Part shown: positions 2,802 to 28,092 of the stretch, one piece after another
How positions within the stretch are numbered: position 1 is the first letter of the stretch
Layout: every line of letters starts with the position of its first letter
NCBI GenBank assembly: GCA_014913405.1
Contig: GCA_014913405.1_3931.1
Source: a phage
Strand: one strand, 5' to 3'
Length of the DNA stretch: 64,000 nt
Translations under genes and position numbers: made by a program
Notes under the pieces: model-generated
Seen by the model: only the letters and a program-made list of their open reading frames with translations
The model's database searches: none
Told to the model about the DNA's origin: nothing

Positions 2802-3149
2802 ATGACATTTAAAGAGTTCTGTCAAGCTACTTTCATAATTGTTTTCTTAGTTGGGGCAGGTGTCTGGGGAGGATACTCTTACAGAGACTACCAAGTTGCT
2901 GAAGCTGAGTTAAGCAATGAGAAACTAATAAGTGTTGCTAAAGATGCTTATCAGGAAGGTTTAGCCACACTGAGCACCAATTACAAAAATGATTTGAAAG
3001 ATGTGCTTGCTAAGAATAAGCATACAAAAGAGGTACTAACATATGAAAAAACTAAGCCAGAGTTTTATAATGTTTGTGTTACTGATAATTATGTCAGGGT
3101 GTTCAACGAACAAAGTGAACAGTACATTCAAAAACTCCCAAGTAAGTGA
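2802..3149 (+). CDS. i-spanin-like protein (N-terminal TM helix, periplasmic helical region)
   Basis: TM segment FIIVFLVGAGVWGGY; overlaps downstream lipoprotein ORF in another frame. Confidence 0.4.
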   Translation: MTFKEFCQATFIIVFLVGAGVWGGYSYRDYQVAEAELSNEKLISVAKDAYQEGLATLSTNYKNDLKDVLAKNKHTKEVLTYEKTKPEFYNVCVTDNYVRVFNEQSEQYIQKLPSK

Positions 3150-4606: not shown

Positions 4607-5386
4607 ATGGGTATTGTAAAAGTTGTGAAAGGTAACTTACTAGCTGCCTTCAAAAACACAGACATTGAGTTAATTGCTCATGGTTGCAACTGCCGTAACC
4701 TCATGGGTGCTGGAATCGCTCAAAAAATTGCTAAGATTTTCCCAAAAGCTGAAGAAGCTGACCGGAAATTCCATAAAAAGTTTGGCTACAGCGCTCATGA
4801 TATCGGATACCAGATGATTGGTGAGGTGTCACATGCTCGAACGGAGTATGGTTACATTTTTAACCTATATACACAGTTGGATGTTGGGAAGTGTGCATCA
4901 TACCGATACTTAGTGGAGTCACTAGAAAAACTCCGTAAATTTTGCTGGATGCACAACATTCGTAAGATTGGTTTACCCATGATTGGTGCAGGTATCGGTG
5001 GTTTAGACGCACAAGCTGTGAAAAGCCTCATTAATAGCGTTATGTACAACGTTGATGTGTACCTATACGTCTATGATGAAGCAATGGCAACTGTAGTTAC
5101 CCCTAAGTATGCCACCTCAGCACCACAATTCTATGATGGTGTCGTGCTAAGTGACGGTAAGTCTAACCATGTTACCCTCTATCAGCTTGTTGATGGTAAG
5201 GTCGAGGCTAGTTACCCTCTGGTTAGTGAGATGGGTATGTGTAATAGTGAAATGTTCTCAATTGACCCGTTTGGTAGATACGAAGGGGTGTTCTTTGATA
5301 GCTACCCAGCAGCATACATCTACACAACAAATCAGGATGAAGTTCACTACTTGCTGTATTCTAAAAAGTTCAAATTCATAAACTAA
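4607..5386 (+). CDS. Macro-domain protein (ADP-ribose binding/hydrolase fold) with C-terminal extension
   Basis: GNLLAAF...IAHGCNCRNLMGAGIAQKI and IGLPMIGAGIGGL match macro-domain signature regions. Confidence 0.6.
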   Translation: MGIVKVVKGNLLAAFKNTDIELIAHGCNCRNLMGAGIAQKIAKIFPKAEEADRKFHKKFGYSAHDIGYQMIGEVSHARTEYGYIFNLYTQLDVGKCASYRYLVESLEKLRKFCWMHNIRKIGLPMIGAGIGGLDAQAVKSLINSVMYNVDVYLYVYDEAMATVVTPKYATSAPQFYDGVVLSDGKSNHVTLYQLVDGKVEASYPLVSEMGMCNSEMFSIDPFGRYEGVFFDSYPAAYIYTTNQDEVHYLLYSKKFKFIN

Positions 5387-5421
5387 TTAGTGCTTCACAG
5401 CACCTATAATTAATCTAAGAA

Positions 5422-5465
5422 GGCCGCCTAACCCATTGAAAAATTTAAGGTAAGGCAGCCTTTTT
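5422..5465 (+). terminator. Probable terminator after macro-domain gene
   Basis: GGCCGCC...GGCAGCC stem followed by T5. Confidence 0.4.
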
Positions 5466-5622
5466 CATTTTCAATTTGTGCAGGTAGCTGTATAGGTCTG
5501 CACAGGTGTCTCAAAAAATCTCATCGCCGGATAGAAAAATCATTTTCAAAACGTGCAGACTCCGCTCAGGTCGGGCAAGAAAAATCATTTTAGAATTGTG
5601 CAGGTAGGTTTTTATGGGGAGC

Positions 5623-5664
5623 CAGACCAACCCCTCTCCCCCTATTACTCCCCCTCTCCCCAAA
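5623..5664. repeat. C-rich direct repeat (CCCCTCTCCCC x2)
   Basis: Seen directly; unusual in AT-rich context. Confidence 0.8.
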
Positions 5665-5816
5665 AGTCAAGAGAAAAATTTGTAGCGGATTGAAAAATAA
5701 TTCTTGATTTGTGTTCTGTTTTGTGGTAGTCGTGTGCGCACGTTTCATTACAGTTTTTCCAAAAATATTTTTAAAATTTTTCTTGACTCTTTGAACGGGG
5801 TTATCTAGTATTTGCA

Positions 5817-5874
5817 TCAACGGGGAGGGAATGACCTTCCCCACTAAATAAAGTCCTAAACTGGAGATTCAAAA
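5817..5874 (+). repeat. Class A leader cassette (ACGGGGAGGGAATGACCTTCCCCACT hairpin + conserved RBS leader)
   Basis: Near-identical copies at 7376, 8239, 9463, 10940, 11267. Confidence 0.8.
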
Positions 5875-6258
5875 ATGGCATACCGTGCACCTAAATTCAT
5901 CAACAAAGACAACTTTCGCAACGCACTGGAGAAGTCACTTGATGAGAATTTTAAAGGTAACGTTATTGTTGTTCACTCATTTAATTTCAAGTATGATATC
6001 AATGGGAATAAAATCAACCATTACACGGCAACAATGCTAGATGGTACTCTTTCAAGTGAAAAAGCCATTTTACATGCACTTGCTGGACGTGGTAAAAACC
6101 TGATAAGATGCGATAAGAGACGTTATCAGGGTGGCGCATATGGTTACGATGATGCTGTTTATCATCTTGAAAATATGGGCTATCAAGTAGAAAAAGCTGG
6201 AGTGTCTCAAATAATTGGTAGTGATGGTTACGTAACTATCTTCAAAATTAACAAATAA
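5875..6258 (+). CDS. Small early-type protein, hypothetical
   Basis: Conserved leader with AGGAG-like SD before ATG. Confidence 0.6.
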   Translation: MAYRAPKFINKDNFRNALEKSLDENFKGNVIVVHSFNFKYDINGNKINHYTATMLDGTLSSEKAILHALAGRGKNLIRCDKRRYQGGAYGYDDAVYHLENMGYQVEKAGVSQIIGSDGYVTIFKINK

Positions 6259-6343
6259 AGTACTTTACAGGGGGCTTATAGTTCGATAAAGTAAGCCCCA
6301 GATAAAGAGCTTTACCACTAAATCCTAAATTGGAGATTCAAAA
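6258..6343 (+). repeat. Class B leader cassette (GGGGCTTA-loop-TAAGCCCC hairpin + conserved RBS leader)
   Basis: Copies at 6637, 7706, 8502, 9773; stems conserved, loops vary. Confidence 0.8.
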
Positions 6344-6634
6344 ATGGCTACTATCAAAAACGTTGTAATCCCTGTAAAAACTCGTGATGACGCTCGCATC
6401 ATGGCGAAAAAGTTAGGCGGGAAAGTGGTTGACAACGGAAAACAATCTGCTGTAAGATGGGGTGTGAAGGCTGATAAACAGTTGAAGTTAAAAAATTCAC
6501 CAATAAATCTTTTTACATGTGTAAACACTATCGGAAAGACAAATGTATACACGAAAAAGGCATATATTAGACGCGTAGCCTTAACATCTCCAATTCGTAC
6601 AATGAGAAGTCATGCAAAGCTGAAAATTAACTGA
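6344..6634 (+). CDS. Small early-type protein, hypothetical
   Basis: Conserved leader/RBS. Confidence 0.6.
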   Translation: MATIKNVVIPVKTRDDARIMAKKLGGKVVDNGKQSAVRWGVKADKQLKLKNSPINLFTCVNTIGKTNVYTKKAYIRRVALTSPIRTMRSHAKLKIN

Positions 6635-6636
6635 TA

Positions 6637-6722
6637 AAGTACTTTACAAGGGGCTTAAAAGTTGATACCTTAAGCCCCAGATAAAGAGCTTTACCACTAA
6701 ATCCTAAACTGGAGATTCAAAA
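6637..6722 (+). repeat. Class B leader cassette
   Basis: Hairpin GGGGCTTAAAAGTTGATACCTTAAGCCCC + conserved leader. Confidence 0.8.
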
Positions 6723-7019
6723 ATGAAATTATCAAATAAAGTTCGTGAAAATCTAAGCAAATTACTCAACAAAATTGATTTCATTGAAACATCAAGAAAT
6801 AGCCATGATGTTATGGAATGGTTACACGGCAAAATAAAAGGTCGTCGTGTAGTGATTTGCTTATGGAATAGTTGCAGGGAGTATAAAAAACCTGTATTGC
6901 AAGTCAATATCTATGATGATAATCTTAAAAGTCCTGTCAAATCTAAAAGCGATTTACTAGATTCTTATGAGATAACTGTAAATGGCAAAGTGTCACGTAA
7001 AGAGGAAGCACCATGTTAA
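6723..7019 (+). CDS. Small early-type protein, hypothetical
   Basis: Conserved leader/RBS. Confidence 0.6.
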   Translation: MKLSNKVRENLSKLLNKIDFIETSRNSHDVMEWLHGKIKGRRVVICLWNSCREYKKPVLQVNIYDDNLKSPVKSKSDLLDSYEITVNGKVSRKEEAPC

Positions 7020-7345
7020 TGACTGGTATCACTGCAATCATTGCCATTTTCGCGCTCTATAAGGCATATAAAGCCTATAATCTAGCAAATAAGGCAATCA
7101 CACAACAGGTTAGTAATAGCCTTGTAATGAGCTTTCTAGAGCGGTTGAGCGATGAACAATTAAAGCGGTTAGAAATGAGCTTCAGATTCAGGGCGAGAAC
7201 TTATCAAATCAGCGACATTTTCAAAGATGATTTTCAATTAGTCGATGATTATAATTCTCTGATAAATGCTTTAAATATTAGTGACTTAAAAGACTATCAT
7301 ACTGTAATTGTTCAAGAGTTGAGCAAACGAAAACAAAACTGTTGA
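7013..7345 (+). CDS. Small protein, hypothetical (coupled to upstream gene)
   Basis: ORF overlapping upstream stop. Confidence 0.5.
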   Translation: MLMTGITAIIAIFALYKAYKAYNLANKAITQQVSNSLVMSFLERLSDEQLKRLEMSFRFRARTYQISDIFKDDFQLVDDYNSLINALNISDLKDYHTVIVQELSKRKQNC

Positions 7346-7370
7346 CACTGATTTTTAGATAGATTAAATT
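7342..7370 (+). promoter_or_regulatory. Sigma70-like promoter (TTGACA-17-TAAATT)
   Basis: Identical element repeated at 8205-8233. Confidence 0.55.
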
Positions 7371-7375
7371 ACTCA

Positions 7376-7433
7376 TCAACGGGGAGCAATAATCTCCCCC
7401 ACTAAATAAAGTCCTTAAACTAGGAGATTCAAA
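7376..7433 (+). repeat. Class A leader cassette
   Basis: Variant hairpin GGGGAGCAATAATCTCCCCC with compensatory changes. Confidence 0.8.
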
Positions 7434-7706
7434 ATGTATACTACTAACAACGGTCGCACTTTAAATGTCACTCTACGTCACTATGTCGACGGTGTGATGC
7501 ACTTTGAGGATTTACAGGCTGAGCAACATATCTTAAATTGGCAAGTCGCAGGACTCCAAAAAACTGCTACCGGATACGGCAAAAAGATTCCAACTAGTTG
7601 GAAAGTATACTATGAAGGACGTTTGCGCAGAATTTATCAGGATGTATGTGGCAATAGCACATCAAGTTACATCATAGTAAAAGGTAAAAAACTGCATTTA
7701 GTATAA
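7434..7706 (+). CDS. Small early-type protein, hypothetical
   Basis: Conserved leader/RBS. Confidence 0.6.
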   Translation: MYTTNNGRTLNVTLRHYVDGVMHFEDLQAEQHILNWQVAGLQKTATGYGKKIPTSWKVYYEGRLRRIYQDVCGNSTSSYIIVKGKKLHLV

Positions 7707-7791
7707 AGTACTTTACAGGGGGCTTATTAGTCTGTACAGTAAGCCCCAGATAAAGAGCTTTACTACTCAATCCTAAATTGGAGATTCTAAA
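7706..7791 (+). repeat. Class B leader cassette
   Basis: Hairpin + conserved leader. Confidence 0.8.
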
Positions 7792-8196
7792 ATGGCTATT
7801 AATAATCGTGAGATGTCAATCTTAAAAGCACGTTTAACCGTTAATCGAATCAATGTTATTACATCATCAGCACCGGATGAAACATTGCACAACATTATCG
7901 GAAAGATTCAAAGCGTTATCTTAGACGTTGAAAACGTAAAAAACTCATTGGCTGACGTTGCAGCAGGTATCACGCTAGACGGTGCACAATATGAAATGGC
8001 CGACATGTTAGGCAAATCTAAGGTAATGAATAAAGAGCTTGATTTAAAAATGTTTAGATTTGCCGTGAAAGTGTGGCTATCTGTTGAGTATGATGCTAAT
8101 TTTGCAATCGCTGATTTCTTTGCCACTTGGTTACAACGTAATTTGGCAAATCATGACTTTCGTGACATCTGCGACGCAATTTATGCAGAACTCTAA
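7792..8196 (+). CDS. Small early-type protein, hypothetical
   Basis: Conserved leader/RBS. Confidence 0.6.
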   Translation: MAINNREMSILKARLTVNRINVITSSAPDETLHNIIGKIQSVILDVENVKNSLADVAAGITLDGAQYEMADMLGKSKVMNKELDLKMFRFAVKVWLSVEYDANFAIADFFATWLQRNLANHDFRDICDAIYAEL

Positions 8197-8204
8197 AAAT
8201 TTTA

Positions 8205-8233
8205 TTGACACTGATTTTTAGATAGATTAAATT
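8205..8233 (+). promoter_or_regulatory. Sigma70-like promoter (TTGACA-17-TAAATT)
   Basis: Duplicate of 7342-7370 element. Confidence 0.55.
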
Positions 8234-8238
8234 ACACA

Positions 8239-8297
8239 TCAACGGGGAGGGAATGACCTTCCCCACTAAGTAAAGTCCTTAAACTAGGAGATTCAAA
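8239..8297 (+). repeat. Class A leader cassette
   Basis: Hairpin + conserved leader. Confidence 0.8.
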
Positions 8298-8495
8298 ATG
8301 GCTATTATCAACGGTTTAACCATTGAAACCACGCACATCAAAGACATTAAAGTTGGTGATGTAGTTCTTTCCCACGGCGTAGAAAAAACAGTCACTGCAA
8401 AGGATATCAAAGATGATTCTTTCATGGGTAGAACTCTCTTCGGTGATTCTTATTGCTTAGGTTATCTTGCAGTTTTAAAAGTTGTCAAAAATTAA
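8298..8495 (+). CDS. Small early-type protein, hypothetical
   Basis: Conserved leader/RBS. Confidence 0.55.
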   Translation: MAIINGLTIETTHIKDIKVGDVVLSHGVEKTVTAKDIKDDSFMGRTLFGDSYCLGYLAVLKVVKN

Positions 8496-8501
8496 CTGAT
8501 A

Positions 8502-8588
8502 AAGTACTTTACAAGGGGCTTATAGTTCGATAAAGTAAGCCCCAGATAAAGAGCTTTACCACTAAATCCTTAAACTAGGAGATTCAAA
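8502..8588 (+). repeat. Class B leader cassette
   Basis: Hairpin + conserved leader. Confidence 0.8.
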
Positions 8589-9131
8589 ATGAAATGCTTT
8601 CACGGTACTACTCAAGAAAACTTTATCAACCTGATTAATAACGGTGATAAACCATCAGGTGTATGGAATTGTTCGGATATGGACGGCAATTTTTACGTGT
8701 ACCCAGAAAATAAACTCTATGGTGATGATGAGGAAGAGATAGCATCGGAAGGTATCCAGCAAGCTCTAGGAAATGCCACTATCACGGCAGCTTTTCAGAT
8801 GAAAACTCAAAATATTGTTATCTTAGAACTTGACATTCCAGAGGATGAGCTGAATGATGATTATTCTTGTGATAACATGTCAAATATAGCAAGCTTTACA
8901 GAGTACTTTGATGTAAATTGGATTAAAAAGGTCTATACAACAGAGTTCAACGCTATGTATTCACCTTTTTGTCTCCCTTCACTGGATAACCCAAATTTAA
9001 ATTATCTTGATGAAACATTGGAGCTACTTGCTAAAAGTATCCAACAATCCGACAGTATTCAGGTTTTTTGTGACATCATGGATACACTGACAGAAAACAT
9101 TGTAGAGAGTGATTTAAAGGTCTTTTTCTAA
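8589..9131 (+). CDS. Strongly acidic small protein (D/E-rich), hypothetical; DNA-mimic candidate
   Basis: Conserved leader; roughly 35 D/E versus about 9 K/R by eye. Confidence 0.6.
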   Translation: MKCFHGTTQENFINLINNGDKPSGVWNCSDMDGNFYVYPENKLYGDDEEEIASEGIQQALGNATITAAFQMKTQNIVILELDIPEDELNDDYSCDNMSNIASFTEYFDVNWIKKVYTTEFNAMYSPFCLPSLDNPNLNYLDETLELLAKSIQQSDSIQVFCDIMDTLTENIVESDLKVFF

Positions 9132-9197
9132 AAACCTATACATTCACCTTATAAACACTGATTAACCCCTTACAGGGGCTTTTAGAGGGCTTAAATC

Positions 9198-9431
9198 ATG
9201 CTTACAACCATTTATCTCATCCTTTCCATTTGTAACGGCCATTCATGTGACTTTAAAGGGCTTGAAGAGTTTACAGGAAGTAAAGAAAATGCTATTCAAG
9301 TTTGCCAGATAGCAAGACAAGACTACCCCGCCAGTGATGATATACAATGTTACTTTAAGACAGAAGATGACGAAGGAATCTATTTCGACAGTGTCGATGG
9401 TCAATATGAAATTATCATTGAAAAAGACTAG
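9198..9431 (+). CDS. Small acidic protein, hypothetical
   Basis: ORF with RBS; D/E-rich. Confidence 0.5.
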   Translation: MLTTIYLILSICNGHSCDFKGLEEFTGSKENAIQVCQIARQDYPASDDIQCYFKTEDDEGIYFDSVDGQYEIIIEKD

Positions 9432-9462
9432 ACAAGCCTGATAAAAGTCTGTAAATTATCAA

Positions 9463-9524
9463 TCAACGGGGAGGGAATGACCTTCCCCACTAAGTAAAGT
9501 CCTTAAACTAGGAGATTCCAAAAA
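9463..9524 (+). repeat. Class A leader cassette
   Basis: Hairpin + conserved leader. Confidence 0.8.
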
Positions 9525-9773
9525 ATGTATACTAAAACTCAACTAAAAAACATGGTTAGCAATGGCTTAATGGATGAAGTCTATAAAGAGTGTAGACGCT
9601 ACGGGGAAATTAAGGATAAGACTAGTTATGAGTATACCCACACAATAGACTTTAAAACCAATGAGAAGAGGACTGACCTTGTTACTGTAGTAGTGATTGA
9701 GTATAAACGAATTATTTGGACCTTTGAGCTAGTAAAAGGTGAGTGCACAGAGATAGAATATAAAGACGCTTAA
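9525..9773 (+). CDS. Small early-type protein, hypothetical
   Basis: Conserved leader/RBS. Confidence 0.6.
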   Translation: MYTKTQLKNMVSNGLMDEVYKECRRYGEIKDKTSYEYTHTIDFKTNEKRTDLVTVVVIEYKRIIWTFELVKGECTEIEYKDA

Positions 9774-9858
9774 AGTACTTTACATGGGGCTTATTAGTCT
9801 GTATAGTAAGCCCCAGATAAAGAGCTTTACCACTCAATCCTAAACTGGAGATTCTAAA
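9773..9858 (+). repeat. Class B leader cassette
   Basis: Hairpin + conserved leader. Confidence 0.8.
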
Positions 9859-10200
9859 ATGGCTTATGTAACCGTAATTACCGATAAAGCTGGCTCATCT
9901 TGGTCAACTCAAGTAAGTGATAAGATGTCACCTATGCAGTGCCTAAAATACTTTGAACAGTGGAACAAAGGCGAGGGTGTAAGCCCCTTTCAAGTGATGC
10001 AAATCATCCATACAGATAACGAAGGGAATAAAACGACCTTGAACAGTGAATACTACGCAAGCCGTTTTGAAACGAGAAGTAAAACAATGAAGCTTTTACG
10101 TGAATCCGGCTATTCTCATATTGCCGCGCTAATCTGGGATGACCTGCTAAAAAGTCAGCGTATCAGCTATGTAAAGCCTGAAAAAATCTTTATAAGCTAA
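9859..10200 (+). CDS. Small early-type protein, hypothetical
   Basis: Conserved leader/RBS. Confidence 0.6.
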   Translation: MAYVTVITDKAGSSWSTQVSDKMSPMQCLKYFEQWNKGEGVSPFQVMQIIHTDNEGNKTTLNSEYYASRFETRSKTMKLLRESGYSHIAALIWDDLLKSQRISYVKPEKIFIS

Positions 10201-10236
10201 TCAATGACTTATAAAAAACTTTAAAAATTATCTTGA

Positions 10237-10262
10237 CAATACCCCTTGACATTGGTAACTTT
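10237..10262 (+). promoter_or_regulatory. Promoter-like element with tandem TTGACA hexamers
   Basis: TTGACAATACCCCTTGACATTGG; same tandem-hexamer architecture as 20701 and 63200. Confidence 0.4.
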
Positions 10263-10400
10263 GTTCGAGGGGGTTTATCTAAAAGGGATTCACTTAAAAG
10301 ATTCTTTATAGATAAGCTTAAAAAATTGCTTGCAATCATCTTCCAAAAACTTTATAGTTTATCTCAAGCAATAATGCTTTCCTAAACTGGAGATTCAAAA

Positions 10401-10931
10401 ATGAACAAGTTCAAAGCTATCAACTACATTCGCTCAAATAGTGTCATGTCTAAGCCTGTTAAGGATACCTACGAATTTCGTTGCAATGGGGTGCATTTTG
10501 CAACAATTACCAAATCAGAAAACGGGGCTTATTACATTCATCGCCGTAATGTTTCAACCGTGGTAGTCTCTCACTTTATGCAAGCTGTCGCGGAACTTCT
10601 CCCGCTGTTTTTAGGTCTTTACTTGGATGAGTGTAAAAACGTTCACAGCCACGTTAAAAACATTTTAAACAGTTATAAAATGGCTTATGAACGTTCTATT
10701 CATAATTTGAACAAGTTCTATAAAGCCCCTGAAAATACTGTGTCAATAGCTTATGATGTAAGCGGTGAAATGGTCAATCTCTCCAATGTAGAACAAATTG
10801 GCCTTTATGATTTACGTCCTAGCGGTTATTCTAAGACTCTCGGTGAAGGCTTATCCTTCAATATCAAGAACTTAGAAAAAATTTTAAGAGAAATTGAAAA
10901 AGATATTGACGAGACAATCAAAAATCTGTAA
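10401..10931 (+). CDS. Small early-type protein, hypothetical
   Basis: Conserved CCTAAACTGGAGATTCAAAA leader before ATG. Confidence 0.6.
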   Translation: MNKFKAINYIRSNSVMSKPVKDTYEFRCNGVHFATITKSENGAYYIHRRNVSTVVVSHFMQAVAELLPLFLGLYLDECKNVHSHVKNILNSYKMAYERSIHNLNKFYKAPENTVSIAYDVSGEMVNLSNVEQIGLYDLRPSGYSKTLGEGLSFNIKNLEKILREIEKDIDETIKNL

Positions 10932-10939
10932 ATTGTCAA

Positions 10940-10994
10940 TCAACGGGGGGGTAACCTGCCCCACTAAACAAAATCCTAAACTGGAGTTATCAAG
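10940..10994 (+). repeat. Class A leader cassette (variant hairpin GGGGGGGTAACCTGCCCC)
   Basis: Compensatory stem changes. Confidence 0.75.
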
Positions 10995-11258
10995 ATGGAA
11001 AACGTAGAATTAACCACACTATTGCAGATTGCAACTGACAAAGAAGACGTAGCGTTGTTTCACCGTATCGAAAGTGATTTGTTCAATGGTGAAATCATTA
11101 AAGAGTCTTACGAGGTTGTCGGATTCAAAGATGGTAAAGCATTTGGCTTTTTTGACCTCGACAAAAGCAAAGCGGTTACAATGTACGATGTTCTATCTTG
11201 TGAAATTCTGACAAAATACAACGAAAAAAGGCTTGCAACCTACGCCAATATGCAGTAA
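10995..11258 (+). CDS. Small early-type protein, hypothetical
   Basis: Conserved leader/RBS. Confidence 0.6.
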   Translation: MENVELTTLLQIATDKEDVALFHRIESDLFNGEIIKESYEVVGFKDGKAFGFFDLDKSKAVTMYDVLSCEILTKYNEKRLATYANMQ

Positions 11259-11266
11259 ATTACTAA

Positions 11267-11325
11267 TCAACGGGGAGGGAATGACCTTCCCACTAAACAA
11301 AGTCCTAAACTGGAGAATCTAAATT
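11267..11325 (+). repeat. Class A leader cassette
   Basis: Hairpin + conserved leader. Confidence 0.8.
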
Positions 11326-11574
11326 ATGTCAACTATCCGCGTAACTGTTAATGCTTATGGCTGCCACCAACTTGATGCAAAATTCGATATCGGTGGAACA
11401 GATAACACCTTTGACCTTATCAAAATGCTGATTCAGCAGGTGATACCAGATTATAACCCTACTGATGACTTCTGGAAAGATGCCGTAAAAGAAGCCATAA
11501 ACGAGGAATCTCACTACCATTATTGGGGTGACTTGATTGTCTCTCTGTACTACAGCAAACAAGGTTACAACTAA
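11326..11574 (+). CDS. Small early-type protein, hypothetical
   Basis: Conserved leader/RBS. Confidence 0.6.
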   Translation: MSTIRVTVNAYGCHQLDAKFDIGGTDNTFDLIKMLIQQVIPDYNPTDDFWKDAVKEAINEESHYHYWGDLIVSLYYSKQGYN

Positions 11575-11585
11575 TCGACGCAGCG

Positions 11586-11601
11586 GGGCTAAATAGCCCC
11601 A
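11586..11601 (+). terminator. Stem-loop (GGGGCTAAATAGCCCC) at end of plus-strand gene array
   Basis: Perfect 6-bp GC-rich stem; weak T-tail. Confidence 0.35.
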
Positions 11602-12059
11602 GATACCTTAAAAGCTCCTTCTCATAGGGGCTTTTTTACGTCTATAAAGAGACTCTATACAGTCCCTTTCCTTTCCTTCCTAGAATCTACCCCACTAATT
11701 CGATAGAGACTATCTCATACCTTAAAAAGCAATAACTCTATAGTCTACTCTATAACCTCTTATCAAATTAACTTAAATAAAAGCCCATAACCCGAAAGGG
11801 AAGGGCAACCACTAAAACGCTCTATAAAGCTCTATAACAGCCTTATCAACCTAACTTAAGCAATCATATTAACCCACTCTAAAAAGCCCTTTATAGAGCT
11901 TCCCAGAGCCTTAAAAGAATCTTATAAGGGTGTGAGCTTTATCATCTCGTTAGCTATCTTGTGAACTACTAAAAAGGGCTTGTTAGTGTCTTAAAAGTAT
12001 GTTATAGGGGCTATAAAGTTACTTCAAAGTTACGTAAAAGAGGCTATAAAGTTACGTAA

Positions 12060-13135
12060 ATGCTAGCCCCCTTAACATTTTCTTAACAATTTCTTAACAA
12101 TCCCTACATAGTTATGCTTTTAAGGCACTTGTTAGAGACTTGTTAGCCCCTTGTTAAATCTCTGTTAAGACCACGTAAAAGCCTTGTAAGAGTCTTTAGC
12201 ATAGCCTTTAAAGCCTCTGTAAAGCCCTATAAAGAGGTGTCTGTATAGTTGGGGTGTAATTACTAGGAAGAGACTTAAAAGAGCTTACAAGGAGCTATAG
12301 AGAGCTTTTAAGAGGGCTATTTAGAGAATCACTAAGAGGGAAAGGGAACGATAAGAAAAGAGATAGTGACCATGTTAATAGCTTGTTAAAAAGATTAAAC
12401 ACTTGTTAGGAACTTGTTAATTATCCCTACAAAATAACTCTTTAAAATTAACTTGTTAGCTCTCGTTAGTTATCTGTTAAGATTCTGTAAAGACTATTCA
12501 GCACTTGTTAGAAAACTGTTACAGCCTTGTTAGTTCTGTTAAGAATCTGTTAAGACTTTTGAAGAGTTGTTAAGAGCTTGAGAGAGTTGTTAAGAGATTG
12601 TTAAGGATATTTTAAAATTTTGCAAAGGGGATGTTACAGGGCTGTTAAGGGCTACCAAGCAGATATACATCTTCTACAGATATTTTTCAGTCCCTTCAAA
12701 GACCCTAAAAAATGACTTGATAGTCCTATTTTATAAAAATTTTAAAATTCTGAATAATTACCTAGACAGTCTTTTAAAAATACAGGTAGAAACAGGCTTA
12801 TAAGATACCTTGTTAGTACCGTGTTAGACCTTGTGAGATAAGGTCTGTAAAGATATTCCTGTTAAGTTTGTTAAAACAGTCTATATAGAGGCTTAGTAGT
12901 GCCTAGTGAACACCTATAGAGGGTAACATAGCTAACCTAGAGATTAAGAGGTGTATAGGAGCTTCTAAGAGGGTGTAGAGAGATGGTTAAGGTGATTGTA
13001 TAGGTTGTTAAGAAGGCTTGTTAGAAGAGTGTTTAGAAGGGCTATACAGAGGGGCTATTAAGACCACTAGATAGATACTAAGATACTATATAGTACTATA
13101 TAACTATATAGAGAGTAAGATTAAGAAGGTTGTTA
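12060..13135. repeat. Iteron-like array: about two dozen copies of (C/G)TTGTTA(A/G) and CTGTTAAG in an ORF-free region
   Basis: Counted by eye; irregular 8-40 bp spacing; no ORF over 60 aa spans it coherently. Confidence 0.75.
13083..13112. repeat. AT-rich tandem repeat (ACTATATA x3), candidate DNA-unwinding element
   Basis: Seen directly next to the iteron array. Confidence 0.5.
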
Positions 13136-13204
13136 AGAAGGGTAGATATTTTATTCACATATGATGGTGACCCAGCGGTTGGGACAACCGATAAATTTTA
13201 TAAA

Positions 13205-13232
13205 AATTAAAAAGCCCCCGATTAAGGAGGCT
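13205..13232 (-). terminator. Rho-independent terminator for the minus-strand block
   Basis: Minus-strand GCCTCC...GGGGGC hairpin followed by T-run. Confidence 0.5.
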
Positions 13233-13243
13233 CTTAAGATATT

Positions 13244-25182: not shown

Positions 25183-25257
25183 GGGAGATTGACGGTAATT
25201 GGTAAACCTACCATCCTTAGAAGTTGGTGTTTGAGGGTTCGAATCCCTTGTCTCCTA
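25183..25257 (+). tRNA. tRNA with TAG anticodon (Leu-type) but short variable loop
   Basis: Manual fold, 75 nt. Confidence 0.45.
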
Positions 25258-25267
25258 CCAAATTAAT

Positions 25268-25340
25268 GCAGGTGTAGCAAAATGGTTATGCGGCTGACTC
25301 TTAATCAGTAAGACGATGGGTTCAATTCCCTCCACCTGTA
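25268..25340 (+). tRNA. tRNA-Lys(CTT)
   Basis: Manual fold; paralogous to Lys(TTT). Confidence 0.5.
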
Positions 25341-25349
25341 CCAAACATT

Positions 25350-25422
25350 GGGGATGTAGTTTACATGGTTAAAACATAAGTTTTGCAAACTTAAGTACAG
25401 GGTTCAATTCCCTGCTTCTCCA
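25350..25422 (+). tRNA. tRNA-Ala(TGC)
   Basis: Manual fold; G3-U70 identity pair present. Confidence 0.7.
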
Positions 25423-25431
25423 CCAATTAGT

Positions 25432-25503
25432 GCATCCATAGTTTAAACGGGAAAATTACAGTCTTCCAAACTGAGGTTGAGGGTTCGATTCCCTCTGGAT
25501 GCT
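25432..25503 (+). tRNA. tRNA-Gly(TCC)
   Basis: Manual cloverleaf. Confidence 0.65.
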
Positions 25504-25512
25504 CCAAACAAT

Positions 25513-25586
25513 GCTGCTTTCGTATAATTGGCTATTACACATCCCTTGTAAGGATGGAAATGCAGGTTCGAGTCCTGTGAGCAGCA
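25513..25586 (+). tRNA. tRNA-Thr(TGT)
   Basis: Manual cloverleaf, perfect anticodon stem. Confidence 0.7.
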
Positions 25587-25591
25587 CCAAT

Positions 25592-25681
25592 TCAGAGGTC
25601 AAGTGAAAGACCGCTTTGAGTCAACTGAAGACCGTAACAAATACCACGGAGTTGAGTTAGCGGCACAACTTCAGACCTCTT
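25592..25681 (+). ncRNA. Structured inter-tRNA element E5 (related to E1-E4)
   Basis: CAGAGGTC ... GACCTCT closing stem; internal CTGAAGACCGTAACAAATAC. Confidence 0.35.
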
Positions 25682-25685
25682 TCAT

Positions 25686-25757
25686 ACTCGCTTAGTTTAT
25701 ATGGTAAAACATCACCCTTACAAGATGAAGAAAAAGGTTCAAGTCCTTTAGTGAGTA
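25686..25757 (+). tRNA. tRNA-Val(TAC)
   Basis: Manual cloverleaf. Confidence 0.6.
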
Positions 25758-25761
25758 CCAT

Positions 25762-25836
25762 GTTCCAGTATCCCAATTGGCAGAGGATGCAAGCTCAAAC
25801 CTTGTATTAGTGACGGTTCGAATCCGTCTTGGAACA
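25762..25836 (+). tRNA. tRNA with CAA anticodon (Leu-type) but short variable loop
   Basis: Manual fold, 75 nt; Leu-like D-loop AATTGGCAGAG. Confidence 0.45.
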
Positions 25837-25844
25837 CCAATTTT

Positions 25845-25917
25845 GCAGGATTAGTTCAAATGGAAAGAGCAACAGTCTACGAAGCTGTTAATAGGGGTTC
25901 GAATCCCTTATCCTGCG
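25845..25917 (+). tRNA. tRNA-Arg(ACG)
   Basis: Manual cloverleaf, perfect acceptor. Confidence 0.7.
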
Positions 25918-25937
25918 CCAGATAAAAAGGTGATACT

Positions 25938-26180
25938 ATGCAAACATTAACAGTAGTTGAACATGAAAACTGTGAGAGTATTGAGTTTGTCAGGGTCATT
26001 GGTGTTGAACACCACATTTTCTTAAAAGTGGGATACTTATGTGACCCCGCTAGAGTAGAAAGATTTATACGTGATTGTTTTGGTGGTAGACATCTGAAGA
26101 GTGTTATTTTTGAGACAGTTTTACCAGAAGGTTTAGAAACGAATAATAACATTTACCTCCTTACGAGGATTAGACAATGA
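25938..26180 (+). CDS. Hypothetical protein embedded in tRNA array
   Basis: ORF with AAGGTGA SD. Confidence 0.5.
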   Translation: MQTLTVVEHENCESIEFVRVIGVEHHIFLKVGYLCDPARVERFIRDCFGGRHLKSVIFETVLPEGLETNNNIYLLTRIRQ

Positions 26181-26734
26181 GATACTTAAAGTATGCTTCA
26201 TGGATTTTCTTAGCTTTGTTAGAGCCATTTGCAGCAATCTTAGCAGTTATCTTAGCACCTTTTGTAGTTCCATTCTACAGTGAGAAGAAAGGACACTTAC
26301 CTTTCGGGTTCAGATGGATGGAGACATATGACAACCCAATTGATGGTGATGAAGGTCACGTTAAAAGATGGGCTAATATTAGATGGATTGGTAAACTAGG
26401 TGTCTACATGCAAAGAGTCGGATGGCTCTGGAGAAACAAAGCTTATAACTTCTCTTACCATGTATTAGGAAGAGATGTAAGAGATGTTACTAAGTGGAAA
26501 GGTAATATCAACGTAAGTTCTAACCCTGAAGATAATCAGACTGGTTATCTCCTAATGTGGAACAGTAATGCTTGGGGATTATTCGCTTTTATCCCATCAA
26601 TTAAAGTCTTCGGTAAACAGTTTTACTGGAGAATTTATGTTGGATGGAAACTTAAAAGTGTTGTCCCAGAAGAAAGAGCATTCTCAAGGGAAAGAGTTAT
26701 GTTGGCATTCTTTATTCATCCACTGAGAAAGTAA
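26177..26734 (+). CDS. Membrane protein (N-terminal TM helix, Trp-rich), embedded in tRNA array
   Basis: ORF coupled by ATGA overlap. Confidence 0.5.
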   Translation: MRYLKYASWIFLALLEPFAAILAVILAPFVVPFYSEKKGHLPFGFRWMETYDNPIDGDEGHVKRWANIRWIGKLGVYMQRVGWLWRNKAYNFSYHVLGRDVRDVTKWKGNINVSSNPEDNQTGYLLMWNSNAWGLFAFIPSIKVFGKQFYWRIYVGWKLKSVVPEERAFSRERVMLAFFIHPLRK

Positions 26735-26742
26735 AGATTTAA

Positions 26743-26815
26743 AGGGGATTAGTTTACAAGGTTAAAACCTCGGTCTTTGAAATCGAAGAAGTTGGTTCAA
26801 TTCCAACATCCCCCG
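26743..26815 (+). tRNA. tRNA-Gln(TTG)
   Basis: Manual fold; 1-72 mismatch. Confidence 0.6.
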
Positions 26816-26820
26816 CCAAT

Positions 26821-26896
26821 GCTCCATTACTCCAATTGGCAGAGAGGCCAGACTTAAAATCTGTGTTATGTATCGGTTCGAATCCGATATGGAGTA
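26821..26896 (+). tRNA. tRNA with TAA anticodon (Leu-type), 7-nt variable loop
   Basis: Manual fold, 76 nt. Confidence 0.45.
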
Positions 26897-26904
26897 CCAA
26901 ATTT

Positions 26905-26977
26905 AGCGGTATAGCATAACTGGCAATGCAGCAGTCTCTGAAGCTGTCCTATTAAGGTTCAAATCCTTATGCCGCTG
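26905..26977 (+). tRNA. tRNA-Gln(CTG)
   Basis: Manual cloverleaf. Confidence 0.6.
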
Positions 26978-27011
26978 CCACTTCTAAGGATTCTTACGAG
27001 AGTCCTTAAAT

Positions 27012-27085
27012 GTGGCCTTATCATAAATGGTAATGACCCATGCTGTGAACATGGTCTATACGGGTTCAAATCCCGTAGGTCACCC
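27012..27085 (+). tRNA. tRNA-His(GTG)
   Basis: Manual cloverleaf; discriminator C. Confidence 0.65.
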
Positions 27086-27092
27086 CAATTTA

Positions 27093-27167
27093 TAGTCCAA
27101 GTAGCTTATATGGTTAAAGCGCGTGTCTGAAAAACATGAGAAGAGGGTTCAAATCCCACTGGACTAC
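27093..27167 (+). tRNA. tRNA-Phe(GAA), atypical acceptor/D junction
   Basis: Manual fold. Confidence 0.5.
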
Positions 27168-27185
27168 CAATTTCAAAGGTGCTTA

Positions 27186-27920
27186 ATGAAAGAGATGACA
27201 GAACAAGGTAAGGAGATTTTCAATCTCTTAAAAACCGGTAAAGGGTTTTCTAACCCCCTTATTACTGGTGCAGCAGTTCTCGGTGGAACCGTAGCTGCCT
27301 CTACATCACTTGTAAGCTCTATTAGCTCTGTATCAGACCCTACAGTAAAGGATAAGCTTGTTGCTGCTGGACTTACAACAGTTCTGCTTAACAGCTTTAC
27401 CACGAGTCTGACAAGCACTACATCAACTACCAAAACACTAACAGATTACGGTCAAAAGTCCATTGATGAGTTTTCATCACGTATGCAGGTAGCAAAAGGT
27501 TACTCTAATGTTATGGGTGCAGCAGGTGAACAAGTTGGCTGTACACCATTTAGTGGTATTATGGGTGTTGCTACAGAGTATGGTCAAAAAACTATTGATA
27601 CGATTAACAGTGTACTAGATAGTGTTAATGGTGTGTTAAGTGACTTACAAGATGCTATTGACAAAGGTCTTGATACTATTTCTGATTTAGCTGAGCAAGC
27701 TGTTAGTAAGATTAATGAAGGTATTTCAAAAATTACAGCTTATGCAGATGAAGTTGTGCAGATGATTGAAGAAGAAGCTGCTCTTATTGCAGAGTACCTT
27801 AAAACGAATATCAATGGGTTCTTAGCAGGTATCTTACCAGACTGGTTTGATGATGCTTGTAAAACTGGTGTAATTGACACTATTGCAACACCAGAAATGA
27901 AGAACGCATTACAGAAATAA
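27186..27920 (+). CDS. Hypothetical protein embedded in tRNA array (start moved from track 27123, which lies inside tRNA-Phe)
   Basis: In-frame ATG at 27186 with AAAGGTG SD. Confidence 0.5.
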   Translation: MKEMTEQGKEIFNLLKTGKGFSNPLITGAAVLGGTVAASTSLVSSISSVSDPTVKDKLVAAGLTTVLLNSFTTSLTSTTSTTKTLTDYGQKSIDEFSSRMQVAKGYSNVMGAAGEQVGCTPFSGIMGVATEYGQKTIDTINSVLDSVNGVLSDLQDAIDKGLDTISDLAEQAVSKINEGISKITAYADEVVQMIEEEAALIAEYLKTNINGFLAGILPDWFDDACKTGVIDTIATPEMKNALQK

Positions 27921-27922
27921 AT

Positions 27923-28012
27923 GGAAGATTAACCCTAAAAGGTAAGGGAGCAGTTTGCTAAACTGCCAGTAGCTGAGAAATCGGTGTACCAGTTCAAGTC
28001 TGGTATCTTCCT
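27923..28012 (+). tRNA. tRNA-Ser(GCT), class II
   Basis: Manual fold, 90 nt, perfect acceptor and anticodon stems. Confidence 0.7.
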
Positions 28013-28019
28013 CCAATTT

Positions 28020-28092
28020 GAATCCGTGACAGAAACGGCTATGTGCCTGTCTGCAAAACAGGTTTATAAGGGTTCGAGTCCCTTCGGATTCT
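28020..28092 (+). tRNA. tRNA-Cys(GCA)
   Basis: Manual cloverleaf, standard 73 nt. Confidence 0.7.

Follow-up and report, generated by a model that had tools for sequence, protein, structure and literature searches.

Repeated promoter/stem-loop elements (PeSLs) have been described in the T4-type phages RB49/phi1, PST/T4 and nt-1/KVP40 (Arbiol et al. 2010, PMC2839356; Comeau et al. 2014, PMC4122927). These intergenic units of ~100 bp join a sigma-70-type early promoter with a 17-bp spacer, a stem-loop with a G-run and a C-run in its arms, and, at the 3′ end, a start codon with its Shine-Dalgarno (SD) sequence. Within a hyperplastic region the units cluster among small ORFans, indels between relatives lie at them, and recombination between cassettes is the mechanism proposed for the T4-type PeSLs (PMC2839356, PMC4122927). 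In the start-associated sequences (SAS) and extended SAS (ESAS) of cluster K mycobacteriophages (Pope et al. 2011, PMC3203893), an asymmetric SD-containing motif stands directly ahead of many unrelated genes, as does the leader examined here. We analysed an array of 14 small genes at positions 5387-11600 of a 64,000-nt stretch of phage DNA (contig GCA_014913405.1_3931.1 of GenBank assembly GCA_014913405.1; hereafter the window), which resembles the PeSLs in anatomy, in setting and in the placing of indels and is likely to be an early expression and shuffling system of the PeSL kind in a new lineage.

Parts of such arrays have been recorded before. In the Felix O1 paper, direct repeats of 57 bp and 39 bp are listed and left uninterpreted (PMC3185647), the wV8 record labels the repeats DR_1 to DR_9 and the text of the wV8 paper does not mention them, and the authors describing Mordin, a Mooglevirus, noted a 26-bp repeat and likened it to SASs (PMC4611695). 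In the literature searched, we found no paper on a two-class promoter/hairpin architecture, on its covariation or on its link to module exchange in Ounavirinae.

Results

An array of 12 expression modules in a Felix O1-like phage

Megablast of 5387-11600 matched 259 phage records, nearly all from Felix O1-group phages of Escherichia, Salmonella, Shigella or Citrobacter, and ranked wV8 and the E. coli O157 typing phages first, at 98.2-98.5% identity across 77-78% of the query. Judged by these matches, the window comes from a wV8-like Felixounavirus, subfamily Ounavirinae, and not from a T4-type phage. The initial annotation had matched the array to the promoter/stem-loop cassettes described for T4-type phages. 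Phage type apart, that cassette reading agrees with the breakpoints, the reassortment of variants and the promoter signature with 11 of 11 hairpins that are described below.

Between 5875 and 11574 lie 14 plus-strand ORFs of 65-180 amino acids. Their products form 14 mutually unrelated families in BLASTP clustering, which rules out tandem duplication as the source of the repeats. The segment is an early accessory-gene ('hyperplastic') region, with its 14 small genes arranged in 12 expression modules, each of which opens with a leader of the pattern CCACTAA..TCC(T)TAAACT(A)GGAGATTCAAAA-ATG. The leader core is CCTAAACTGGAG in eight copies and the variant CCTTAAACTAGGAG in four, all 12 within 5.8-11.3 kb of the window, where shuffles predict 0 matches; no copy of leader or cassette was found elsewhere in the window or in the rest of the wV8 genome. 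A leader had been ascribed to every gene and a stem-loop cassette to each. The former applies to 12 of the 14, excluding gene 4 (7013) and gene 9 (9198), and the latter to 11, as gene 12 (10401) has a promoter and leader from which the hairpin is absent.

Class A cassettes

The six class A hairpins of the initial annotation (5822, 7381, 8244, 9468, 10945 and 11272) are all present; three are identical, and the one at 11272 is one C short. TTGACA-17-TAAATT promoters had been seen at 7342 and 8205. Both exist, but the promoter is not limited to these two: all six class A copies have a -35 hexamer (TTGACT, TTGACA twice, TAGACA, TTGACG or TTGCAA), a spacer of exactly 17 bp and a -10 hexamer (TAAATT in five, TAGTAT in one), followed by 10 nt ending in ATCAAC and then by the hairpin. 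The -35 often lies within the end of the preceding gene or includes its stop codon. On the plus strand, the cassettes occupy 5783-5874 (-35 TTGACT at 5783, -10 TAGTAT at 5806, hairpin 5822-5842, leader 5843-5874); 7342-7433 (TTGACA at 7342, TAAATT at 7365, hairpin 7381-7400 of a GGGGAG/CTCCCC variant, leader 7401-7433); 8205-8297 (TTGACA at 8205, TAAATT at 8228, hairpin 8244-8264, leader 8265-8297); 9429-9524 (TAGACA at 9429, holding the stop codon of gene 9, TAAATT at 9452, hairpin 9468-9488, leader 9489-9524); 10906-10994 (TTGACG at 10906, inside gene 12, TAAATT at 10929, weak hairpin 10945-10962, leader 10963-10994); and 11233-11325 (TTGCAA at 11233, TAAATT at 11256, hairpin 11272-11291 with the missing C, leader 11292-11325).

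This layout recurs across 13 genomes, the window and 12 related genomes. TAnnnT is found exactly 10 nt ahead of the hairpin in 57 of 58 distinct class A upstream regions, at least four of the six TTGACA positions are matched at 17 or 18 bp in 56 of the 58, and a G-run/C-run stem of 4-8 bp occupies the same position in all 38 distinct class A hairpins. Fold z-scores of the cassette hairpins range from -1.8 to -4.2, apart from the weak copy at 10945. AT-rich tracts stand ahead of the -35 in PeSLs. Here, A- or T-rich runs are visible before several -35 hexamers (AAAAATTTTA-TTGACA at 8205, AAATTTTTC-TTGACT at 5783), which at 39% G+C may or may not exceed the genome background.

The class A loop AATGA includes an ATG (5832-5834, 8254-8256 and 9478-9480; 3597 in L005). 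The Felix O1 record begins ORF19 at this loop ATG, giving 105 rather than 90 amino acids, and a simple ORF caller does likewise; this start is probably mis-annotated.

Class B cassettes and the RNA hairpin

Five class B copies had been delimited as GGGGCTTA...TAAGCCCC with variable loops, at 6271, 6650, 7719, 8515 and 9786. Number, positions and loop variation hold, but the element is far longer than described: a 59-nt, 20-bp three-helix hairpin (for example 6256-6314) with a lower stem UAAAGU/GCUUUA, a 1x1 loop, a middle stem CUUUA/UAAAG, a 3x3 loop, a 9-bp upper stem and an 11-13-nt terminal loop. The stop codon of the upstream gene is the first triplet of the hairpin in three of the five copies, and the others begin near it. 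The plus-strand cassettes span 6256-6343 (hairpin 6256-6314, -35 TTTACA at 6264, -10 TAAAGT at 6287, leader 6315-6343); 6635-6722 (hairpin 6635-6693, TTTACA at 6643, extended -10 tgaTACCTT at 6666, leader 6694-6722); 7704-7791 (hairpin 7704-7762, TTTACA at 7712, TACAGT at 7735, leader 7763-7791); 8500-8588 (hairpin 8500-8558, TTTACA at 8508, TAAAGT at 8531, leader 8559-8588); and 9771-9858 (hairpin 9771-9829, TTTACA at 9779, TATAGT at 9802, leader 9830-9858).

A consensus scan finds TTTACA-17-TAAAGT, TACAGT or TATAGT within four of the five class B copies, and consensus scanning flags 10 of the 12 cassettes overall, as signatures only. Outside the stems, an alignment of 43 class B variants has no invariant columns other than TTTACA and T33, A34 and T38 (TAnnnT), which lie 17 bp apart, and the remaining loop positions vary. 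Both hexamers occur in all 48 distinct variants from three genera, with a spacer of 17 bp in 46 and 18 bp in 2; an extended -10 (TGn) is present in 24 of the 48 and a G at -14 in 41. Read from these columns, class B also bears a promoter signature, in which the stem-loop sits between the -35 hexamer and the -10, which it overlaps.

The hairpin itself is under selection. Pairs were counted after realignment with the loops replaced by GAAA, as plain MAFFT gapped the stem of the GGGGTTATC/GATAGCCCC variant. Of the cells in 36 distinct sequences (Felixounavirus, Mooglevirus and Kolesnikvirus), 97.5% pair, as opposed to 33-55% with the partner slid. Changes on both sides are seen at six pairs, and the covariation score (0.215 vs 0.082) was reached by 0 of 500 shuffles. 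Compensation is clearest in the changes from CUUA/UAAG to UUAUC/GAUAG, from G-C to U-A in the lower stem and, in Kolesnikvirus, from GGGG/CCCC to GGUG/CACC. G·U pairs (69) far outnumber A·C pairs (1), indicating that pairing is selected on the sense strand, as RNA and not as a DNA cruciform. Fold z-scores of the class B hairpins are -2.8 to -4.2.

In the T7 early region, sites R0.3-R1.3 are intercistronic hairpins of about two helical turns in an early polycistronic RNA made by the host polymerase, with two helices around an internal loop where the cut falls. Class B copies could be RNase III sites of this type, at which a cut in read-through RNA would free monocistronic mRNAs that keep a protective 3′ hairpin, a possibility that we rate as less likely than not. 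The geometry agrees with it, in that three helical segments of 20 bp in total, separated by a 1x1 and a 3x3 loop, make ~24 base-pair steps (6+1+5+3+9) between cistrons, and so does the sense-strand selection. The lower stem joins sequence before the -35 with sequence past the predicted start, and compensatory changes extend to it; such pairing matters only in read-through RNA. However, the 'internal loop' CTTTACA and the loop TA...T are fully explained as -35 and -10 and lend no independent support to a nuclease site, and class A, with its stems of 4-8 bp, is too short for RNase III. We had also considered class B as a purely RNase III-like RNA element with a conserved internal loop, and downgraded this once the consensus scan and the invariant columns pointed to -35 and -10 signatures. 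Cleavage by RNase III could coexist with the promoter function and is plausible on geometric grounds only.

Cassette hairpins compared with the terminators at the array ends

Several database records treat the cassette hairpins as terminators. The ASO1A record places WebGeSTer rho-independent terminators at the class A hairpins, right behind predicted promoters; terminator features in the array are found in the KhF3 and wV8 records too, and a PeSL stem-loop cut lacZ read-through as much as rrnB T1 (PMC2839356). That the hairpins are terminators or attenuators shielding each module from upstream transcription, the role in which PeSL stem-loops were described, is nevertheless unlikely. None of the cassette hairpins has a U-run after it: class A continues with ACUAAAUAAAG and class B with CCACUAAAUCC, both A-rich 3′ flanks. 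A terminator scan flags none of them, and several of the database features here are annotated on the minus strand. The true ends of the array do have U-runs. An intrinsic terminator after the macro-domain gene marks the upstream edge (5417-5470, plus strand, z = -3.9) and another closes the array (11610-11640, plus strand, z = -3.7); they correspond to t13 and t23 of Felix O1, the only two that its TransTerm table gives in the region (PMC3185647). Intrinsic termination was rejected for the cassette hairpins on the absence of U-runs. Just before the real terminator at the array end lies a class-B-like remnant hairpin (GGGGCTAAATAGCCCC-AGATA; 11585-11605, plus strand) that has no TTTACA -35.

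The common leader

All 12 leaders place a GGAG SD 8-11 nt ahead of the ATG, at 8 nt in most. They form two subtypes, L1 and L2, which differ by a paired T...A insertion equal to one extra base pair, and folding predicts that the SD of every leader lies in a mini-hairpin, UCC(U)-UAAACU-(A)GGA. Kolesnikvirus leaders are able to form CCUU-AUA-AAGG, and the core TCCTAAACTGGAGA is common to Mooglevirus. The final ~10 nt before the ATG tend to go with the downstream gene. One leader belongs to a hairpin-less cassette, with a TTGCAA-17-TATAGT promoter (10330-10400, plus strand) in the 200-nt spacer 10201-10400 ahead of gene 12, a position that carries a class A hairpin in most relatives.

Conservation that reaches far beyond the SD, ahead of 12 unrelated genes, would be expected if the leader, with or without the hairpins, were the binding site of a phage or host factor controlling translation or decay of the 12 mRNAs together, as a post-transcriptional regulon. 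The shared Mooglevirus core and the SAS comparison of the Mordin authors (PMC4611695) point the same way, as do the mini-hairpin, the added pair between subtypes and the pairing available to Kolesnikvirus leaders. We nonetheless regard such a regulon as quite improbable. The mini-hairpin has merely 3-4 bp, the T and A insertions are 6 nt apart so that linkage explains their co-occurrence, frequent gene conversion among cassettes can keep leaders alike without a binding factor, and no candidate regulator was identified.

Module exchange between relatives

Gene order is colinear among the 13 genomes, whole modules are present or absent, and protein clustering finds at least 13 further modules in the relatives. 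Module content differs in 11 of the 12 relatives; the exception, O157 typing phage 12, matches the window in all 14 genes. Whether indels between relatives coincide with cassette boundaries had been set beforehand as a refuting comparison, and the outcome favours the cassette reading: all 64 breakpoints, from at least 14 events in the 12 genomes, lie in cassettes. A breakpoint was so counted when, in chained alignments, it fell in a spacer, at most 15 nt from a gene start or at most 38 nt from a gene end; cassettes with these margins cover ~33% of the array. The flanking alignments overlap by 20-96 nt at the breakpoints.

Cassette class always tracks the upstream gene, whichever gene follows. 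After gene family 13, for example, the cassette is always class A and the next family is 14, 15, 17 or 40. Variants reassort between positions: the same gene bears L1 in some genomes and L2 in others, and particular hairpin variants, such as GGGGGATGACCTCCCCC, occur after different genes in different genomes. This reassortment of leader and hairpin variants requires exchange between non-allelic cassettes.

Small ORFs that are each followed by an imperfect hairpin with a variable loop recall an integron cassette array, and RB49 PeSL crossovers have been mapped to the stem-loop (PMC2839356). The hairpins might on this basis act as DNA, as cruciforms or folded single strands recombined in the manner of integron attC, yet we consider this highly improbable. 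The excess of G·U over A·C argues against a double-strand cruciform, the overlaps at the junctions suit ordinary homologous recombination, and no site-specific recombinase is annotated in the compared stretches of these virulent phages, the rest of the window and genomes not having been examined.

Distribution and expression timing

The class B unit matches 288 phage records at ~5 places per genome, and every record inspected belongs to Ounavirinae. Names in the record list are those of Escherichia, Salmonella, Erwinia, Shigella, Citrobacter and related phages, the hosts and genera of Ounavirinae. The cassette system is conserved across Felixounavirus, Mooglevirus and Kolesnikvirus. In Kolesnikvirus the architecture is the same and the sequence has diverged, with the -10 in the loop of some hairpins (for example TTGACA-18-TAAAAT). 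Enterobacter phage phi63_307, a Kolesnikvirus, has intermediate cassettes on its reverse strand (4872-4950 and 2386-2454) that combine the class B 5′ half (GCTTTACAGGGGG) with another 3′ half (GGGGTTAT...ATAACCCC-GTCGAAAC). The Kolesnikvirus intermediates suggest that classes A and B are related through recombination.

Homologues of gene 8 occur in Pakpunavirus and Vibrio phages, and those of gene 5 in large myoviruses and T7-like Pseudomonas phages; by these matches, payload genes are spread more widely than the cassettes. Around its gene 8 homologue, the Pakpunavirus Pseudomonas phage C2-10_Ab1 has a repeated unit of its own (2887-3000 and 4724-4846), made up of TTGAC(G/A)-17-TAGAAT, a short hairpin, the leader AAACCCGGAGA and the ATG. 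It may be that this group of myoviruses more widely carries repeated promoter/hairpin/leader units.

RT-PCR in Felix O1 assigns array ORFs 16, 20, 21 and 22 to the 5-min time point and ORFs 17, 19 and 23 to that of 25 min. This timing is consistent with host-polymerase promoters.

Payload genes and surroundings

The initial annotation had put the payload genes forward as candidates for host takeover or anti-defence. The payload proteins have no Pfam family matches, and every PHROGs match is of unknown function. All are encoded on the plus strand. Gene 1 (5875-6258, 127 amino acids) matches phrog_4495, and gene 2 (6344-6634, 96 amino acids) is likewise of unknown function. Gene 3 (6723-7019, 98 amino acids) and gene 4 (7013-7345, 110 amino acids), which overlap by ATGTTAA, form one module (6723-7345), in which gene 4 is without a leader. 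Gene 8 (8589-9131, 180 amino acids) and gene 9 (9198-9431, 77 amino acids) form another (8589-9431), in which gene 9 has a different, 66-nt upstream region and no leader. Both pairs travel as two-gene modules in all relatives. The remaining genes, also of unknown function, are gene 5 (7434-7706, 90 amino acids), with its homologues beyond Ounavirinae; gene 6 (7792-8196, 134 amino acids); gene 7 (8298-8495, 65 amino acids), which is missing in Felix O1, Moogle and 3HA14; gene 10 (9525-9773, 82 amino acids), present in only 3 of the 13 genomes; gene 11 (9859-10200, 113 amino acids); gene 12 (10401-10931, 176 amino acids); gene 13 (10995-11258, 87 amino acids), which is absent from Felix O1 and phiWec177 and has no homologue in SUT_S920 or Mushroom; and gene 14 (11326-11574, 82 amino acids). 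Within the 66-nt spacer between genes 8 and 9 (9132-9197) are a CCCCTTACAGGGGCTTTT hairpin and the sequence TTATAAACACTGATT, which is the class A -35 region (TTATTGACACTGATT) in decayed form. These remnants suggest a degraded cassette, akin to the 'half PeSLs' of Comeau et al. (PMC4122927).

To its left the array adjoins a macro-domain gene (4607-5386; Pfam Macro), and to its right ~1.6 kb of non-coding DNA is followed by a minus-strand gene block, a layout that is the same in 12 of 12 relatives. The macro-domain protein is found at 95-99% identity in only 12 records; other Ounavirinae among the matches listed, such as the Felixounavirus phages LF82P5, FSL SP-012 and 3HA14, have it at 41-42%. 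Two deeply divergent alleles appear to occupy this one site. Between the upstream terminator and the first array promoter (5387-5782), GAAAAATCATTTTCAAAWYGTGCAG(GT) occurs four times, at 5465, 5534, 5579 and 5692, and TTTGTGCAGGT repeats in Moogle and 3HA14 resemble these copies, which could be operator or promoter repeats.

The stretch at 11600-13240 stays non-coding in every Ounavirinae locus examined and is dense in short repeats, among them iterons CTTGTTAG/A at 11-bp spacing (12125-12172), inverted sets of TTAACAA (12072-12100) and TTGTTAA (12537-12615), and CTATAAAG motifs. Several GenBank records start within its equivalent. It is a candidate replication origin or genome end. Farther along, 24 tRNA genes are clustered on the plus strand (22884-28092), as is typical of Felix O1-like phages. 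Rfam at the gathering threshold finds these 24 tRNAs and nothing else in the whole window; in E-value mode, 5.3-11.8 kb gives one chance snoRNA match, and the cassette hairpins fall in no known RNA family.

Discussion

The cassettes suggest a scheme for expression and exchange in which initiation, the effect of the hairpins on RNA and the recombination pathway are all inferred. In class A, a good predicted host sigma-70 promoter (TTGACA-like/17 bp/TAAATT) is followed 10 nt on by the G-run/C-run hairpin, which would take up about +3 to +25 of the transcript. With a start predicted 7-8 nt past the -10, the hairpin would lie ~3 nt from the RNA 5′ end, where it could protect the 5′ terminus of the mRNA while also serving as a 3′ barrier in RNA that reads through from upstream. 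Class B would be a weaker promoter, TTTACA/17 bp/(TGn)TAnnnT, whose spacer and -10 are inside the upper stem-loop. As DNA it would serve as a promoter, and its hairpin would form only in RNA read through from upstream, there to insulate or stabilise the upstream cistron or to act as a processing site. The near-identical cassettes of 60-100 bp would in turn supply portable homology, by which recombination could delete, insert or swap modules that arrive ready for expression.

Several observations weigh against reading the array as a PeSL-like system. The cassette-free minus-strand cluster at 13.2-19 kb has ~7 indels in the same genomes, all at gene boundaries, so that boundary coincidence alone is weak evidence; it could be explained by selection against broken genes. 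The array is only ~2x as plastic as this cluster, and flanking homology at the junctions is unavoidable because every spacer holds a cassette. Class B has weak -10 hexamers, such as TAAAGT and TACCTT, the class A hairpin at 10945 is marginal (z = -0.4), and the missing U-runs count here as well. Class B matches do not extend the cassettes outside Ounavirinae, and they are thus not shown as vehicles between phage families. The literature searched holds no transcriptome or start-site paper for Felix O1-like phages, so that initiation at the 11 promoters is a prediction. We still judge a PeSL-like expression and shuffling system to be the probable identity of the array.

As a more speculative extension, class B might be dual-coded, as an extended -10 promoter in DNA and a 20-bp processing hairpin in RNA, cut by RNase III or bound by a phage factor, and would together with the SD mini-hairpin constitute a post-transcriptional regulon. 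This is doubtful, although such a regulon, if real, would time and balance freely exchangeable early genes across all Ounavirinae.

Typing, biocontrol and therapy directed at Salmonella and E. coli make wide use of Felix O1-like phages, whose most variable gene set lies in this array. Its 12 self-contained promoter/hairpin/leader modules account for accessory genes coming and going as clean units, and offer ready-made early expression slots for phage engineering. The analysis also corrects annotation where hairpins were labelled terminators, some on the wrong strand, and start codons were placed in a hairpin loop. Class B, moreover, is a compact case of one sequence selected as both promoter and RNA helix.

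E. coli mRNAs contain hairpins in comparable positions. A stem-loop of the ompA 5′ type, a few nt from the 5′ end, slows 5′-end-dependent decay, and REP-type hairpins without a U-run after a cistron block 3′ exonucleases. The class A arrangement is alike, but these stabilisers are host elements without promoter coupling or gene shuffling. The T7 R sites share with class B (6+5+9 bp) a helix of ~20 bp between cistrons, usually with an internal loop, and differ in having no promoter and no common leader after them and in not being near-identical repeats; class A stems are too short for the likeness to extend to them.

Compared with the SASs (PMC3203893), the present motif is unrelated in sequence (GGGATAGGAGCCC), and its copies stand in one array, whereas SASs are scattered through the genomes of temperate siphoviruses that infect Actinobacteria. 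About half of the SASs have an imperfect upstream inverted repeat with a variable spacer, and 11 of the 12 leaders here have an upstream hairpin. Pope et al. report little support for pairing in the SAS repeats; here, covariation supports the pairing and promoter signatures accompany it.

The PeSLs are closer. The phages differ, Ounavirinae being another subfamily, and no sequence similarity is claimed. Terminator activity has been shown for PeSLs, as have encapsidated mini-circles from recombination between neighbouring units. The present system is confined to a single locus. One array here alternates between two sharply distinct classes, the hairpin of class A comes after the -10, within the transcript, class B is a 20-bp three-helix element that takes in the upstream stop codon and has undergone compensatory changes, and a far longer invariant leader follows the hairpin. 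Against these differences stand two specific likenesses: a stem-loop between the -35 and -10 that overlaps the -10, as in class B, is the commonest PeSL layout (PMC2839356), and TTTACA-N17-TAnnnT is close to the PST/T4 consensus TTTACW-N17-TAYWAT (PMC4122927). The array thereby extends the PeSL principle past T4-like phages to a second myovirus subfamily, in a form not described as such in the Felix O1 group.

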